Shown in pieces: positions 56,869 to 62,033 of a stretch of DNA of 64,000 bases. The notes under the pieces were generated by a model that was not told the origin of the DNA, ran no database searches, and saw only the letters and a program-made list of their open reading frames with translations. The stretch spans positions 15,315 to 79,314 of the forward strand of contig JAZSRN010000053.1 in the NCBI GenBank assembly GCA_045538535.1. The letters run 5' to 3'. Position 1 is the stretch's first letter; each line of letters starts with the position of its first letter. The position numbers and the translations under genes are program-made. This DNA comes from Candidatus Gastranaerophilaceae bacterium (GTDB lineage Bacteria > Cyanobacteriota > Vampirovibrionia > Gastranaerophilales > Gastranaerophilaceae).

Positions 56869-57525
56869 TTATACATTACAAATTTTTGAATATTCACAAG
56901 AGGCACATTTATCAGATTTTTTACAATCAAAAGATGTGTCTTTTGTTATTTCAGCACAAACGTTTTCTATTATATTTTTATATTGCGCTTTCAAATTGTC
57001 ATCAAATAAAACTTCCACATTACGATTATTTTTCAAATCAATATAAACAAACTGTATCTTACGAGTATCTCCTTTAGAGCGCAAAAACTCATCTAATATT
57101 AACAAATACGAAATCGTTTGAAAATCATACTGTGGATTTTTTGGAACTGAACCGGTCTTGTAGTCCAAAATATAATATCCGGACTCATCTTTCATTAAGG
57201 CATCAAGTCTTCCGCTCAACCAATACCCGCTAATATTTGCAGACAAATTATATTCTGAATTTACATAACACTTTTTAAAATAACTATTTTCACAAAGTTT
57301 TTGGAAAATTTCGGTTTCTTCAAAGTTTAAAGCCTCACCTAATTTCGTAATATCTTGTCCGCTCAAGTAATAATGTGCAAGTGCATGGATTTTTTTACCT
57401 TTTACAAAATAAGATGAAGGCATAGGGATATTGATTTTTTCAAGATACTTAAGCCTATATTTATAAGGGCATTCACTATATGTTTTTAGCATATTCGGGT
57501 AAAATATAATCGAATTTTTAAGCAT
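56869..57525 (-). CDS. PD-(D/E)XK nuclease with Cas4/AddB-type four-cysteine Fe-S cluster motif
   Basis: One N-terminal Cys (YSECPYKY), RLDAL...ILDYKTG catalytic core, QxxxY (FQTISY) and C-terminal CKKSDKCASC. ATG 57525 has RBS GGAGG and overlaps the helicase stop by 8 nt. Confidence 0.75.
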   Translation of the reverse strand: MLKNSIIFYPNMLKTYSECPYKYRLKYLEKINIPMPSSYFVKGKKIHALAHYYLSGQDITKLGEALNFEETEIFQKLCENSYFKKCYVNSEYNLSANISGYWLSGRLDALMKDESGYYILDYKTGSVPKNPQYDFQTISYLLILDEFLRSKGDTRKIQFVYIDLKNNRNVEVLFDDNLKAQYKNIIENVCAEITKDTSFDCKKSDKCASCEYSKICNV

Positions 57526-60500
57526 TAATGACCTCCACATCCCCAATGATTTGTTCGAAAATCATACTCGGCTTTTCAATTTTCATTTTACCATAGCTTT
57601 TAACATTAGTCGCGGCAGTAATATATAAATACTTACGCGCGCGGGTAATTGCAACATATAATAATCGCAAATGTTCAGATATCAATTCTTTTTTTAACTC
57701 AAAAACCGTTTTTTTCTTATATTTTGGATTTAGTTGTTTTAATTGTTCCGGCAAAGAACTGCCTTTCAATTCAAACCCATTAAAATCAATGTTCAAATTT
57801 TTCTCCAACAATTCGGGAATAAAAACATAATCAAACTCATCACCTTTTGACTTATGCATTGTCATAATTTGAATTTTACCCACCAAAACATCATTAGCTG
57901 CTTCATCTTCTTCTGAGAAAAACCTAAAGCCACTCAAACTTTTACGTTTTGATAATTCATACAAACGTTCTAAAACATAGTTAAAACCGGAATTTGTCAC
58001 AGACAAACGTTTTATGAGGGTACCTATCAAGTAAATATTAGATTTTTCAATCTCACCTGAAAAATAATAAAGTCCTATTTTCATCGCCAATTCATCAATA
58101 GGCAAATGAGCAAACGAAATCCAATAATTTACATCCCAATAAAACTGTTCAAGATATATATTTCCGATAACATCACAATTCAATTGCACAAAAGGATTTT
58201 CATATTTCCGAATATCCGAAGCCATACGACCATTATACAATCCAAAATCAGACAAAACCTCATACTGTGTTGCTAAATTGTCATTATCGAACGGTCGTTG
58301 AATGATTTTAAGCATTGCAAATATTACTTTAAATATTGATTTTTGCTCTAAAGATTCACTTCTAGTAATTGCTTTTAAACCACTATTATTTATAAAATTT
58401 TGCCACTCAATAACTTGATAATTCGTTCTTAACAAAATCCCAAACGTTGCTTTCGGATTTTTTTTAAGTGCTTTCTTAATTTCTCTAAGCACATAATTCC
58501 GCTCTTCCGAAATTGTTTTGAAAACCCTTGCTTGTATAGCATTTTCACTAACCGGATTTTTACCTTCTACCGGTTTCATCATCATATTATAAAAAGAATT
58601 TTTGTAACTCGGCCGTTTTTCAGCCCATTCAACCAAAGCATTTGCAAGTTTCCAAACACCTTCACAACAACGCTGAGAACAATCCATACTTACGGGATTG
58701 CTCTCTTTTATAAAATTACGAAATCCCTCGACATCGGCATTTGAAAATGTTGTAGTAATAGCTTGATTTATATCCCCACAACGTATAAGATTCTGGTGTT
58801 TTCCACTCAAAAGATTTATTAACCGTTGCTGAATTTCGGAAGAATCTTGCGCTTCATCTTCTATAATATAATGACAAACATTTTGATAATACGCCAATAT
58901 ATCCGGATTTTCTTCCAATAATTTTACAGACGAAATCAAAATATCATCATAATCTATTAAATTGTTTTCTGCCAATTTTTTTTGATAAGCAAGGAAAAAT
59001 TCCTTAAATTTTAATATCTTTTTGTCCGTAATTCTTGCATCAAAACTAACATTAGAAAATTTACAACACGAAAGGCAACTCATAAACTCTTCGGTTTCTT
59101 TTTGTTTTAAACCTAATTCCGCAGAAACCTCTTTTACAATTCGAGTTTTTTGAGTATCATCACAAATTTCAAAATCTGATGATAAGTTTAATCTTTCAAA
59201 ATTCGAATTTTCTTTCAAAATCCTCAATGCTAAACCATGAATAGTGCTAATGTTAGGTAATTGATTTGACTCCGGTCGAATATTTTTAATTCTCTCCCTA
59301 AAATTACGCGCTGCAGATTCCATATATGTCATAACGAAAATATTTTCAGGGTTTACACCTTGATTAAGGATTTTTAATATTAAAGCCAATAAAATAGTTG
59401 TTTTACCGGCACCCGGAACCGCGGATATTGCCATTTTACCAGCCTTATATTCTAATACGGGTTTTTGGTCATCCCGAGGAATTATAGGCTTTACACTTTT
59501 GATTTCATTGTTTTTTTCTGTATTCTCTTTTACACAGATATGGTTTTCTATTCCGCCGAAATTCTCAACACCACTACTATCAAACAAACTAGAAAAAGCG
59601 TATACTTTTTCTTCAGACAATAAAGTTAACTTTCGTAGAATTTTTGCAGTTTTTTCTGTCGAAAGATTTATATTATCTTCAATCGTAAATTCATTTTTTT
59701 CCCAACCTTTTTGAAAAACCCAAGCATTATATAATGGCCCCGTATCCGATTTTATCCACTCAGAATTTGAAACATCGAGCCAGAAGGAATATTTCACTTT
59801 TACTTGATTATCTATTATTTTTTGCGGAGTCCCTACAACCAAATCGTTCTTAAATATTTCAACTTTAGAAACGGGATTTTCAGCAATAATTGAATTTTCG
59901 ATTTGTGTTAAAATTTCTTCTTTTCTATTGATGAAATCAGCACCTAAAACATTCTCAAAATCTTCAATCTGCTTTACAAAAAAATTAAACTTTACAAGTT
60001 CCTCTAATTTCACCAAAGAAAAATCGGCCAATTGGTTAAAAATATCCACAACTTGCTCGGAAAGATTTCGGTTATCCCTTGAACCTTCGTCCAAAACTTT
60101 GAGTAACAAATTGTATTTAGCCAAATATTCATTCGGCAACACCTCACAAACATCTAGTTTTTTGGTTTTAGTAAAATTTACTAATATTTCACGACAATAT
60201 TTCAACGGAATACCTAAAAAACCTGTCAATATACTTCGGATATCAAATTCACTCAAATTGTTTTTCAATTCAGAATTCAATTTTAGAATATTTATAACAG
60301 ATAACACTAAACGATTTTGAATTAACTTTTCATTACCGGATAAATATTTTGTTTTTACGAATTTACGCAATTTTTCACGCAATGAAAACTTTAACATATC
60401 ATCAATTACCGGCGTAACAATAGAAATTTCACAAGGTTTAACATTTCTATCTAAAAGAGAATTAATCTCTTCAATAACAAAATCTACCATCGATGCCCTT

Positions 60501-61438
60501 TTTGACAACGAAAAACTTTTAAAATTTTCTAAAATATTTTGTTCGTTATTAAGAACATTTAAAAACAACTTCTCTGCATCTTGCAAACCACAAGACTCCA
60601 AAACTTCAGATGTAGAATTGGTAAAAACATTTTCAAACTCCCAAACCGACATCCTATCTGCACTCAAATAACCACAACGACTCCCACCTTTTTTATCGTA
60701 TACAATAAAATAATCCGTAAGTTGAGGCGCAAGATATTTTATAAACTCAAAACAAACCGGTGTTATTTCATCTCCATCATCTAAAATTAAATATTTAATT
60801 TTTTCGAAACAATTGGTATTCTTGTACAAATAATTAAAAACCAAAATTTGTCTCAAATAATCCATCTGCCGATAAAAAAGAGTTTTCGACAAAAATTTTT
60901 TCAATGTCAATTTAATATCGGCCGCAAACCCCTCCTTCAGAATTTTTGATCTTTCCTCAACATCTTTGTCTGAAAGATTATTTTGCACAATAAGTGAATA
61001 CCTTCTAAATATTTGATGCAAAAGGGATTTTTTAGAATTATACCCTTTAAATTCAACTTTTTTGAGAATGTCACGAAGCAAAAATTGCGAAACCTCAAGC
61101 CCCGCCAAATTTGGCAAAACCGTTGGATTATTAAACGGATTAGACTGCTCTATACTTGCCCAATTATCAGTTATCGCATTATAAACCAAAGAATTAAACG
61201 AGTGCACTTGCAATTTTTCAAACGAGTTTATTGTTAATAAAGGTAATATTTTTTCAATAAATTTATCTTTTAAACTTGAATTTAAAACAAGAACCAAAAT
61301 TTCAGAAGCATCAATGCCACTGTTCAGCAATTGCGCATACTTTTGAATTAAAAAATCCGTTTTATTACTCGACAAATCCGCTTCTACTAACAACTTTACA
61401 TCCCTTTTTAATTTTAATTTTAACATGAAAAAACACAA
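57518..61438 (-). CDS. UvrD/AddA-type helicase fused to an N-terminal degenerate AddB-like helicase-like half (1306 aa)
   Basis: The C-terminal half carries Walker A AVPGAGKTT (about aa 675), IIEDEAQDS, MTMHKSKGDEFDYVFIP and VAITRARKYLYI. The N-terminal 650 aa has degenerate equivalents (DLSSNKT, ILDDGDE). No nuclease domain is present. Confidence 0.8.
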   Translation of the reverse strand: MCFFMLKLKLKRDVKLLVEADLSSNKTDFLIQKYAQLLNSGIDASEILVLVLNSSLKDKFIEKILPLLTINSFEKLQVHSFNSLVYNAITDNWASIEQSNPFNNPTVLPNLAGLEVSQFLLRDILKKVEFKGYNSKKSLLHQIFRRYSLIVQNNLSDKDVEERSKILKEGFAADIKLTLKKFLSKTLFYRQMDYLRQILVFNYLYKNTNCFEKIKYLILDDGDEITPVCFEFIKYLAPQLTDYFIVYDKKGGSRCGYLSADRMSVWEFENVFTNSTSEVLESCGLQDAEKLFLNVLNNEQNILENFKSFSLSKRASMVDFVIEEINSLLDRNVKPCEISIVTPVIDDMLKFSLREKLRKFVKTKYLSGNEKLIQNRLVLSVINILKLNSELKNNLSEFDIRSILTGFLGIPLKYCREILVNFTKTKKLDVCEVLPNEYLAKYNLLLKVLDEGSRDNRNLSEQVVDIFNQLADFSLVKLEELVKFNFFVKQIEDFENVLGADFINRKEEILTQIENSIIAENPVSKVEIFKNDLVVGTPQKIIDNQVKVKYSFWLDVSNSEWIKSDTGPLYNAWVFQKGWEKNEFTIEDNINLSTEKTAKILRKLTLLSEEKVYAFSSLFDSSGVENFGGIENHICVKENTEKNNEIKSVKPIIPRDDQKPVLEYKAGKMAISAVPGAGKTTILLALILKILNQGVNPENIFVMTYMESAARNFRERIKNIRPESNQLPNISTIHGLALRILKENSNFERLNLSSDFEICDDTQKTRIVKEVSAELGLKQKETEEFMSCLSCCKFSNVSFDARITDKKILKFKEFFLAYQKKLAENNLIDYDDILISSVKLLEENPDILAYYQNVCHYIIEDEAQDSSEIQQRLINLLSGKHQNLIRCGDINQAITTTFSNADVEGFRNFIKESNPVSMDCSQRCCEGVWKLANALVEWAEKRPSYKNSFYNMMMKPVEGKNPVSENAIQARVFKTISEERNYVLREIKKALKKNPKATFGILLRTNYQVIEWQNFINNSGLKAITRSESLEQKSIFKVIFAMLKIIQRPFDNDNLATQYEVLSDFGLYNGRMASDIRKYENPFVQLNCDVIGNIYLEQFYWDVNYWISFAHLPIDELAMKIGLYYFSGEIEKSNIYLIGTLIKRLSVTNSGFNYVLERLYELSKRKSLSGFRFFSEEDEAANDVLVGKIQIMTMHKSKGDEFDYVFIPELLEKNLNIDFNGFELKGSSLPEQLKQLNPKYKKKTVFELKKELISEHLRLLYVAITRARKYLYITAATNVKSYGKMKIEKPSMIFEQIIGDVEVINA

Positions 61439-61557
61439 AAAAAAAATAAAAAATCATCCTAAAATACTATTGATTTTTGCCGACATATAAGCTAGTCTTG
61501 TATTCAAGGAATTACTGAGAGTTCAGTAAGAGAGAATTAAATAACATGGAGGCAAAC

Positions 61558-61764
61558 ATGCAAGAATTACAAGAACAAATCGGATTTTCAGCTGGTGAAA
61601 TTTATGATTATTTGAGCAGCAATGGAGAAGTAACTTTCTCTAAAATGAAAAAAGAATTAGACTTGAAAGGTAACTTTGCAGACTTAGGTCTTGGTTGGTT
61701 AGCTAGAGAAGATAAAGTAGAAATTTCTAAAAAAGGTTCTTCAGTTAGCGTAAGACTTAAATAG
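61558..61764 (+). CDS. Small winged-helix protein (DUF2582-like)
   Basis: GEIYDYLSSNGEVTFSKMKKEL...LGWLAREDKV. RBS GGAGG before the ATG at 61558. Confidence 0.55.
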   Translation: MQELQEQIGFSAGEIYDYLSSNGEVTFSKMKKELDLKGNFADLGLGWLAREDKVEISKKGSSVSVRLK

Positions 61765-61844: not shown

Positions 61845-62033
61845 CTATTCCAGCAAATCTTCTAATAACGACGCATTTTTACTTGCAGTCGTAGATTCAC
61901 GAACTTTTTGCTTGTAAATATAAGTTCGCAAAGCCTCTCTAATCAATTCACTACGTGAACGATTTTCACCATCCGCAACCTGATCAATCTTATTCAAAAA
62001 ATCTTCAGGCATAGAAATTAATACTCGAGCCAT
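61845..62033 (-). CDS. CopG/ribbon-helix-helix family protein
   Basis: MARVLISMPEDFLNKIDQVADGENRSRSELIREALRTYI is a typical RHH N-terminus. Confidence 0.75.
   Translation of the reverse strand: MARVLISMPEDFLNKIDQVADGENRSRSELIREALRTYIYKQKVRESTTASKNASLLEDLLE

Follow-up and report, generated by a model that had tools for sequence, protein, structure and literature searches.

A tandem UvrD-fold protein and a separate Fe-S nuclease of Gastranaerophilaceae as a candidate AddAB/AdnAB-type DNA-end-processing enzyme

Introduction

Three designs for the resection of double-strand breaks are recognised in bacteria: RecBCD, AddAB, and AdnAB. AdnA, the lead module of AdnAB, keeps Walker A and Walker B yet is dispensable as a motor. 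AddB contains a helicase-like domain that keeps Walker A only (PMC3321194). Cyanobacteria, marine picocyanobacteria excepted, have repeatedly been described as lacking both RecBCD and AddAB (PMC5101192, PMC12094033). Here, we analyze a helicase–nuclease gene pair in a 64,000-nt stretch of DNA (the window) from a Candidatus Gastranaerophilaceae bacterium, a non-photosynthetic cyanobacterium of the gut (Cyanobacteriota, Vampirovibrionia; contig JAZSRN010000053.1). One gene encodes a protein with two helicase-fold modules and the other a small Fe-S nuclease. With moderate confidence, we propose that the pair is a single-motor, single-nuclease housekeeping enzyme of the AddAB/AdnAB type, which would process DNA ends for recombinational repair and not for defence.

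Results

Two UvrD-fold modules in one chain

Positions are window coordinates, and residue numbers count from the ATG at 61426. The source assembly comprises 1.72 Mb in 101 contigs and is 97% complete. The pair has the following features:

57518..61426, minus strand: tandem-helicase gene, 1302 amino acids (aa); the database copy is 100% identical, and the frame upstream is open to a TTG at 61438
59549..61405, minus strand: N-module, diverged UvrD fold, residues ~8–626; by Pfam, Protein Data Bank (PDB) profile, AlphaFold2 (AF2), and hhalign
59474..59548, minus strand: linker between the modules, residues ~627–651; low predicted local distance difference test (pLDDT) values, low conservation
57569..59473, minus strand: C-module, complete superfamily 1A (SF1A) motor, residues ~652–1286; by Pfam, PcrA match, and invariant motifs
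56869..57525, minus strand: Fe-S PD-(D/E)XK nuclease, 218 aa, Cas4/AddB/AdnA type; by Pfam, invariant residues, and AF2
57518..57536, minus strand: coupling junction; read from the sequence

The open reading frame (ORF) of the helicase (57518..61438, minus strand) is open for 1306 codons counted from the TTG, the length reported in a preliminary description of this stretch made from the letters alone. However, the identical database protein (100% identity) has 1302 residues, and homologue alignments begin at about residue 8–9. Therefore, translation more likely begins with the ATG at 61426, which gives the shorter product.

The protein is composed of two UvrD-fold modules, with the invariant motor motifs in the C-terminal one only. 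They are connected by a linker in which pLDDT falls below 50 at model residues 636–646 and conservation is low.

The C-module carries AVPGAGKTT (residues 669–677), DEAQDS (857–862), MHKSKGDEF (1190–1198), and VAITRARKYL (1258–1267), so that all four motifs quoted in the preliminary description as a complete UvrD/AddA set confined to the C-terminal half are located there. The chain terminates 35 residues past motif VI and lacks a nuclease domain, as had also been noted. Residues 653–1272 match Pfam UvrD-helicase (2.6e-55; 188.5 bits, cut-off 23) and UvrD_C (5e-21; 75.9 bits, cut-off 25.6), and the best solved relative is PcrA (1pjr; 2e-35). All 79 aligned sequences keep AVPGAGKT and DEAQDS unchanged, and 76/79 have VAITRA[KR]. 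With intact motifs and scores above the PF00580 and PF13361 thresholds, the C-module belongs to the PcrA/UvrD/Rep group of SF1A. It falls below the equivalog cut-offs of PcrA, UvrD, and Rep (197 vs 911 bits) and below those of AddA and RecB, and is therefore not an orthologue of PcrA, UvrD, or Rep.

The N-module is a degenerate helicase fold of AddB/AdnA character

In the N-module, ADLSSNKT (residues 16–23) and ILDDGDE (214–220) stand at the positions of Walker A and DExx, as the preliminary description had read them. The module retains D216-D217-x-D219-E220, R310, and R598, together with the family motifs GGSRxGYL, TPQKIID, and WLDxSxxEW..PLYNAWV. When the whole 1306-aa protein is scanned with hmmscan, no match is obtained in the N-half; the Pfam signal appears only if the half is scanned alone or in a six-frame scan. 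Scanned alone, it matches PF00580 UvrD-helicase with 25.1 bits, above the gathering score of 23, and 23/24 of its stand-alone relatives match the same family. The suggestion that this half only looks like a degenerate helicase thus stands as to its degeneracy and understates the likeness, which goes beyond resemblance by eye. A match to an unrelated domain, which had been named as a possible outcome of a profile search, is not what the N-half gives.

A profile of the N-module matches PcrA (8e-15), UvrD, Rep, and AdnA (6ppj_A; 1e-5) in the PDB. The AlphaFold2 model, computed from 40 sequences, has the four-subdomain UvrD fold with a pLDDT of 86.3 and a predicted template modelling score (pTM) of 0.84; a second homologue search yielded mostly truncated close relatives and was used solely for a deeper folding alignment. 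Ranked by Foldseek E-value, the top matches of the model are UvrD (2e-17), the UvrD1 dimer of M. tuberculosis included. In global superposition, AddB is best (4cei_B; template modelling score (TM) 0.65, root-mean-square deviation (rmsd) 7.2 Å), compared with TM 0.60–0.64 for AdnB and AdnA and 0.58–0.60 at ~12 Å for UvrD. By hhalign, the N-module is about equally close to Vampirovibrionia AddB (P 99, E 8.5e-18) and to its own C-module (E 2.4e-18), and the C-module matches the same AddB with E 2e-8 only. These profile, alignment, and fold comparisons support the identification of the N-module as an SF1A module of AddB/AdnA character, intermediate between a live UvrD and AddB, and they bear out the earlier view of the N-terminal ~650 aa as a degenerate AddB-like module. 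AdnA has been described likewise as an intermediate between the two (PMC3321194).

In the wider family of N-like proteins, Walker A is intact (GPxGSGKT), motif II reads DDxDE, and the arginines at the positions of motifs IV and VI do not vary; the blocks GGSRRGYL, TPQKIID, and WLDxSxxEWxRxDxxPLYNAWV stand in place of motifs Ia, III, and V. In Gastranaerophilales, the position before the P-loop lysine holds N, D, K, or E instead of glycine, and in the source genome the first P-loop glycine is lost too (ADLSSNKT). The P-loop Lys-Thr pair (K22-T23) is invariant, and a full GxxxxGKT is found in 3/79 orthologues. The alignment thus shows a degenerate P-loop, and the N-module is presumably inactive as a motor. 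Its mean identity is 61.8% (78 orthologues) vs 66.3% for the motor, and it is under purifying selection.

The nuclease and its overlap with the helicase gene

The nuclease matches PDDEXK_1 (PF12705; 1.3e-23, 84.7 bits, cut-off 22) and Cas_Cas4 (PF01930; 3.6e-8, 34.1 bits, cut-off 22.7). It has the D..D/ExK..QxxxY residues and the one N-terminal and three C-terminal cysteines of the Fe-S Cas4/PD-(D/E)XK group: C19, H47, D108, D121-x-K123, Q136..Y140, C207, C210, and C216 do not vary among 32 aligned orthologues or among the homologues from split operons (below), and the catalytic and cysteine residues are at least 90% conserved in 74 sequences. In accordance with the preliminary description, this separate 218-aa four-cysteine protein is the sole nuclease of the pair. 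It scores 60.7 bits against the Cas4 equivalog TIGR00372, under the cut-off of 65 bits, no cas genes are present among the neighbouring ORFs in the window, and a helicase is its partner in 77/80 loci; therefore, it is not a CRISPR-associated Cas4 proper. The model (pLDDT 92.5) is closest to the AdnA nuclease domain (7sjr_A; TM 0.73, E 3e-9), followed by cyanobacterial ACE1, Cas4, AddA/AddB, RecE, Exo5, and Dna2.

The nuclease ATG (57523–57525) sits inside the end of the helicase gene, whose stop codon TAA occupies 57518–57520, giving an overlap of 8 nt that can be read directly. A GGAGG at 57532–57536 lies 6 nt upstream of the ATG. The same 8-nt overlap recurs in 37/73 orthologous loci, and overlaps of 4–11 nt are found in 16 more, indicating that the arrangement is not due to chance. 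The gene arrangement thus points firmly to translational coupling of helicase and nuclease, as had been suggested from the overlap and GGAGG.

The tandem module and AddB exclude each other in Vampirovibrionia

A search for recBCD or canonical addAB elsewhere in the genome had been proposed; in the 97%-complete source genome, no RecC, AddB, or RecD is found above cut-off. A canonical PcrA/UvrD-like helicase is also encoded (contig C52). Another gene, C33:48673-51744, encodes a 1023-aa single chain with a UvrD-type helicase and a C-terminal Cas4/AddB-like Fe-S nuclease; it adjoins holA/holB-like genes and is accessory in the family (7/24 genomes).

We surveyed 121 Vampirovibrionia genomes for the tandem module and for AddB_N above cut-off. 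Counts by family are as follows:

Family f1: tandem module 24/24, AddB_N 0
Family f39: tandem module 2/2, AddB_N 0
Family f42: tandem module 13/14, AddB_N 0
Family f45: tandem module 9/9, AddB_N 0
Family f47: tandem module 1/1, AddB_N 0
Family f40: tandem module 0/23, AddB_N 23/23
Family f44: tandem module 0/2, AddB_N in one genome

None of the 121 genomes has both the tandem module and AddB, and RecC is found in none of those surveyed. In family f41, which has neither AddB nor the tandem module, a version of the single-chain helicase–nuclease with ~1100 aa is present in 21/23 genomes.

Across Cyanobacteriota, full-length matches to the N-like profile are present in 278/301 genomes. The one large family without the N-like protein (0/13), f25, consists of small complete genomes and has RecC in 13/13, which fits the published occurrence of recBCD in marine picocyanobacteria (PMC5101192). 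Each of five complete genomes of oxygenic cyanobacteria has one N-like gene, one full-length helicase of this type (260–399 bits), from which a second PcrA-like paralogue is clearly separate (82–151 bits), and one nuclease orthologue (E 1e-23 to 1e-47), the three parts lying at dispersed positions. ADDB_N has no match in these five genomes, and the N-like proteins match no NCBIfam family. A published statement that S. elongatus encodes AddAB (PMC10269773) was not adopted, there being no ADDB_N match in an S. elongatus control or in the five genomes.

In S. elongatus, randomly barcoded transposon sequencing (RB-TnSeq) indicated that losing a Cas4-like nuclease, a UvrD paralogue (not PcrA), or RecJcy mimics the loss of the Argonaute SeAgo, and these losses improved plasmid maintenance and transformation (PMC10653904). 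We treat these cas4 and uvrD genes as a lead only, their orthology to the three parts being unconfirmed.

The pair is core to its lineage and absent from phages

The N-module is present in 122/123 genomes of the source family, in frames of ~1100–1580 aa, mostly 1260–1350. The related-locus set comes from a narrower alignment, in which the best 80 loci are all from Gastranaerophilales and named distant examples are few. The nuclease adjoins the helicase in 77/80 of these loci, and in the other three the contig ends too early. The two genes are a single-copy core gene pair of the lineage.

The N-module has no match in phages and none in mobile plasmids; the lone, distant "plasmid" match is the 962-kb secondary replicon of Ilyobacter polytropus. 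In PADLOC, nothing is returned for the N-module, the C-module matches GajB/UvrD models (2e-49), and the Cas4 matches are likewise generic cross-hits. No defence genes lie beside the pair in the window or in the annotated distant loci, and no GajA/OLD nuclease is present among the flanking ORFs. The pair is not a Gabija system: the GajB matches are generic, the partner is a PD-(D/E)XK nuclease and not OLD, and the distribution is that of a core gene (122/123 genomes), not a patchy one. The suggestion that the pair is a defence-type helicase–nuclease is thus disfavoured, the genes being core rather than island-borne and absent from phages and true plasmids.

Split operons indicate a three-part origin

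Searched exhaustively for the N-half, a set of 1.84 billion representative proteins yields only 380 clusters at E ≤ 1e-3. The N-module occurs in two architectures, fused (1220–1560 aa) and stand-alone (645–715 aa). The named fused proteins in which the second Walker A is intact are from Vampirovibrio and Vampirovibrionales, and the stand-alone ones are from Sericytochromatia and from Negativicutes/Bacillota. A stand-alone protein of 657 aa is also encoded by pILYOP01 of Ilyobacter polytropus, a cultured species of Fusobacteriota (locus L125, NC_014633.1:902741-904714); it is annotated only as a "UvrD-helicase domain-containing protein", and no helicase or nuclease adjoins it.

In three genomes from two other Cyanobacteriota families, one named Sericytochromatia, the N-like protein, helicase, and nuclease are encoded by three genes in one operon, in this order (L022, L024, L115). 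In one locus (L023), the order is N-like, nuclease, helicase. Since split three-gene operons exist, the pair in the source genome emerges from this comparison as the fused form of a three-part set, whose members the operons link in Rosetta-stone fashion. The parts are an N-like protein of ~650–770 aa, an ATP-binding pseudo-helicase for which no family has been named; a UvrD paralogue that would be dedicated to the set; and a "solo Cas4". Comparison of the architectures indicates an ancestral state of three genes, in which the N-like ATP-binding module, the helicase, and the nuclease were each encoded separately. The N-like and helicase genes were fused in Vampirovibrionia, and the Walker A of the N-module decayed in Gastranaerophilales.

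Five distant fused loci (L126–L130) were examined for context, and genes of DNA repair and replication adjoin several relatives. In L128:1002-10319 and L130:2-8819, polA, a small gene, priA, the fused helicase, and the nuclease are packed or overlapping, with the fused gene 1–10 nt after priA in these two independent, distant lineages. In L127:4064-10265, the order is ruvC, a small gene, an IF-2B-family gene, helicase, and nuclease. In the split locus L023:3455-10539, recJ lies directly upstream of the operon. The preliminary description had proposed to examine the neighbourhood for repair genes or variable islands; the relatives show polA-priA and ruvC operons and, once, recJ. The small gene in second place in L127, L128, and L130 is unannotated and encodes 118–143 aa. 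The remaining two fused homologues, L126:6001-9744 and L129:6001-9735, are 40% and 47% identical and have no adjoining nuclease gene; the next gene downstream encodes a glycosyltransferase or GAPDH.

In one genus (g2; e.g., G075:C6:82920-84800), many matches are flagged with "1 TGA" inside. The flagged alignments begin 2–4 residues earlier than the stop-free ones, which most likely puts the TGA shortly before the true start codon and outside the gene.

Neighbouring genes

Upstream of the pair, the window contains:

61427..61545, no strand assigned: putative divergent promoter region; by alignment of 80 intergenic regions
61546..61764, plus strand: DUF2582 winged-helix protein, 72 aa; PF10771, 4e-18

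The DUF2582 protein is encoded divergently upstream of the pair in essentially all 80 Gastranaerophilales loci, with 70–94% identity, and is better conserved than the helicase. The gene is single-copy in the source genome and is also present in L129, the locus with the 47%-identical helicase. The intergenic region, ~120–145 nt across loci, contains a conserved block, TATAATAGACTAA..N..GCAATAGT..AGGATGA, in the alignment of 80 regions. The DUF2582 protein may be a regulator of the operon or a fourth component or partner; its membership in the system is uncertain. Apart from this gene, the neighbours of the pair show no conservation across the order in the 80 loci. The window also contains recR, of the RecFOR route.

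Between the DUF2582 gene and pyrH, a 62-aa ribbon-helix-helix ORF (CopG/antitoxin-like; 61845-62033, minus strand) has three genomic paralogues (C21, C87, C68) and lies near the helicase in only 3/80 loci. No toxin partner is seen for it, and it is probably unrelated to the helicase–nuclease system.

Discussion

Proposed mechanism and alternatives

In the proposed end-processing reaction, the complex would bind a duplex end, and the C-module would hydrolyse ATP, track 3'->5' on the 3'-ended strand, and unwind the duplex. The N-module, no longer a motor because the P-loop glycines are lost, would act as a scaffold and strand guide, as AddB or RecC does, and dock the nuclease. The displaced 5'-ended strand would be threaded into the Fe-S nuclease and degraded. 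With a sole nuclease, resection would directly yield a single-stranded 3' tail for RecA, and a Chi-type switch may be unneeded.

Three other explanations have to be weighed. UvrD-type monomers translocate but unwind poorly, and dimerisation activates UvrD1; the N-module could accordingly be a built-in second protomer that activates the motor of a general-purpose UvrD, with the nuclease optional. The Foldseek ranking, with UvrD at the top and the UvrD1 dimer among the matches, the hhalign result that places the N-module as close to the C-module as to AddB, and the two distant fused homologues without an adjacent nuclease are in line with this. Nevertheless, we regard it as very improbable: TM and rmsd favour AddB and AdnAB over UvrD, the genome already has a canonical PcrA/UvrD (C52), and the nuclease is adjacent in 77/80 loci, with overlap. 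This alternative also concerns one module only and is compatible with an end-processing function of the pair. A role at replication forks is less remote, though unlikely. Here, a Dna2-like combination of helicase and Fe-S nuclease would trim 5' flaps or reversed forks for reloading by PriA. It would explain the position of the fused gene 1–10 nt after priA in polA-x-priA-helicase-nuclease operons of two lineages; Dna2 and Exo5 are among the fold matches of the nuclease, and the C-module is closest to PcrA, UvrD, and Rep, which act at forks. However, the priA linkage is absent from the window, the mutually exclusive distribution with AddB and RecC and the ruvC and recJ contexts point to recombination, and reversed forks are also substrates of RecBCD and AddAB, which makes the two readings overlap.

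The pair might instead be mainly an anti-plasmid or anti-phage device, or a supplier of Argonaute guides, that shreds foreign linear DNA. This fits the S. elongatus losses that each resemble SeAgo loss (PMC10653904). The five oxygenic genomes each have one orthologue-grade helicase and one nuclease, and the C-module does match generic GajB/UvrD models in PADLOC. Against it, the pair is a single-copy core feature (122/123), unlike defence genes, which are usually patchy; its flanks in the window and in annotated loci contain no defence genes; the PADLOC matches are generic UvrD cross-hits and the N-module has none; and searches of phages and mobile plasmids gave no copies. In addition, RecBCD and AddAB also restrict foreign DNA as a by-product. 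We consider this explanation improbable. The preliminary description had offered "a lineage-specific end-resection complex" beside a defence type; end resection is the favoured function, but the architecture reaches beyond the lineage, as the fused form of a phylum-wide three-part set.

Several observations weigh against an AddAB/AdnAB-type end-processing enzyme. Complex formation, motor polarity, and the strand cut are taken by analogy. The C-module is nearer in sequence to PcrA/UvrD than to AddA or RecB, and the N-module, with K22-T23, DDxDE, R310, and R598, may still bind nucleotide. Two distant fused homologues (L126, L129) lack an adjacent nuclease. The source genome has another helicase–nuclease (C33) and the RecFOR route (recR). 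Vampirovibrionia families f41, f43, f2, and f46 show neither AddB nor the tandem module, and f5 (13/13) and f29 (1/1) have RecC and the N-like protein together. Finally, the tallies rest on few evolutionary events, related genomes sharing ancestry.

Implications

More tentatively, and at somewhat less than even chances, the pair may be the fused form of a fourth bacterial class of break-resection enzyme after RecBCD, AddAB, and AdnAB, with its parts dispersed in nearly all oxygenic cyanobacteria. To our knowledge, these three scattered parts have never previously been linked; the Vampirovibrionia fusion and the Sericytochromatia-like three-gene operons physically tie the three proteins together. 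If this is true, the set would supply the end-processing enzyme that has been missing from a phylum reported mostly without RecBCD and AddAB, and it would be the likely source of the S. elongatus cas4/uvrD/recJcy phenotypes and of Argonaute guide DNA. It may also explain where Argonaute guides come from and what limits transformation in cyanobacterial chassis strains.

The set is a testable candidate for the start of recombinational repair in the phylum, in which model cyanobacteria are genetically tractable; Ilyobacter polytropus is a possible tractable organism for the stand-alone N-like protein. It would also represent a natural experiment in the rewiring of helicase–nucleases, with the order N-module, motor, nuclease and a single nuclease, and with a second ATP site that seems to decay progressively from AdnA-like through AddB-like to RecC-like.

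Comparison with known systems

We compared the pair with AddAB of the Bacillus subtilis type (3U44, 4CEH–4CEJ) and mycobacterial AdnAB (6PPR, 7SJR, 9NP6). It would work like either of them but lacks the features that define membership in either. The preliminary description was right that fused helicase halves with a single detached nuclease differ from canonical AddAB.

Like AddAB, the pair combines one live SF1A motor with a helicase-fold module stripped of motor motifs and a four-cysteine Fe-S PD-(D/E)XK nuclease, and within Vampirovibrionia, AddB and the tandem module are mutually exclusive. The nucleotide-site residues compared in PMC3321194 (Walker A Lys-Thr, motif II Asp, motif IV Arg) are present in the N-module without motor motifs: K22-T23, D216/D217, and R310 are invariant and Ia, III, and V are replaced. 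As in AddB, the N-module of the wider family keeps Walker A (PMC3321194). Unlike AddAB, the pair has one nuclease instead of two. AddA is an SF1A helicase with a RecB-type nuclease at the C-terminus of the same chain, whereas the motor chain here has no nuclease domain and scores far below the AddA models (TIGR02785, 99 vs 708 bits; TIGR02784, 74 vs 861 bits). In AddB, the inactivated helicase fold is covalently followed by the Fe-S nuclease; here, the two parts are on different polypeptides: the AddB-like module is joined to the motor, ahead of it in the same chain, and the nuclease is a separate 218-aa protein. Pfam ADDB_N has no match in the source protein, and the NCBIfam AddB models touch the nuclease only (12 bits).

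Like AdnAB, the pair has two UvrD-like modules; the N-module profile matches AdnA, and the best structural match of the nuclease is the AdnA nuclease domain. In AdnAB, however, AdnA and AdnB are separate chains, each a UvrD-like motor with its own C-terminal nuclease, whereas here the helicases form one chain and the nuclease is free. The pair shares with RecBCD a motor-less helicase-fold scaffold (RecC), an SF1A motor (RecB), and a single PD-(D/E)XK nuclease. It differs in having no second motor of the RecD type and a nuclease that is Fe-S and untethered to the motor, and RecC has no sequence relationship to the pair. With Gabija, it shares only the matches of the C-module to GajB models: the N-module hits none of the defence families, and the gene has a core distribution, not a patchy one.

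In the literature searched, we found no description of a tandem UvrD and Cas4 machine in cyanobacteria or Melainabacteria. The nearest report is one sentence on an operon of uvrD and a Cas4-like pfam12705 gene, "mostly Clostridiales", in a non-defence context and with a possible role in repair (Hudaiberdiev et al. 2017, PMC5704561). Several metagenome-assembled genomes of the source lineage are mislabelled as Clostridiaceae, Fusobacterium, or Brachyspira. The single-chain UvrD–Cas4 fusion treated at length in PMC5704561 is a different protein, represented here by the accessory C33 gene. New relative to that report are the additional, degenerate helicase module, the occurrence as three genes, the spread across the phylum, and the exclusivity with AddB.

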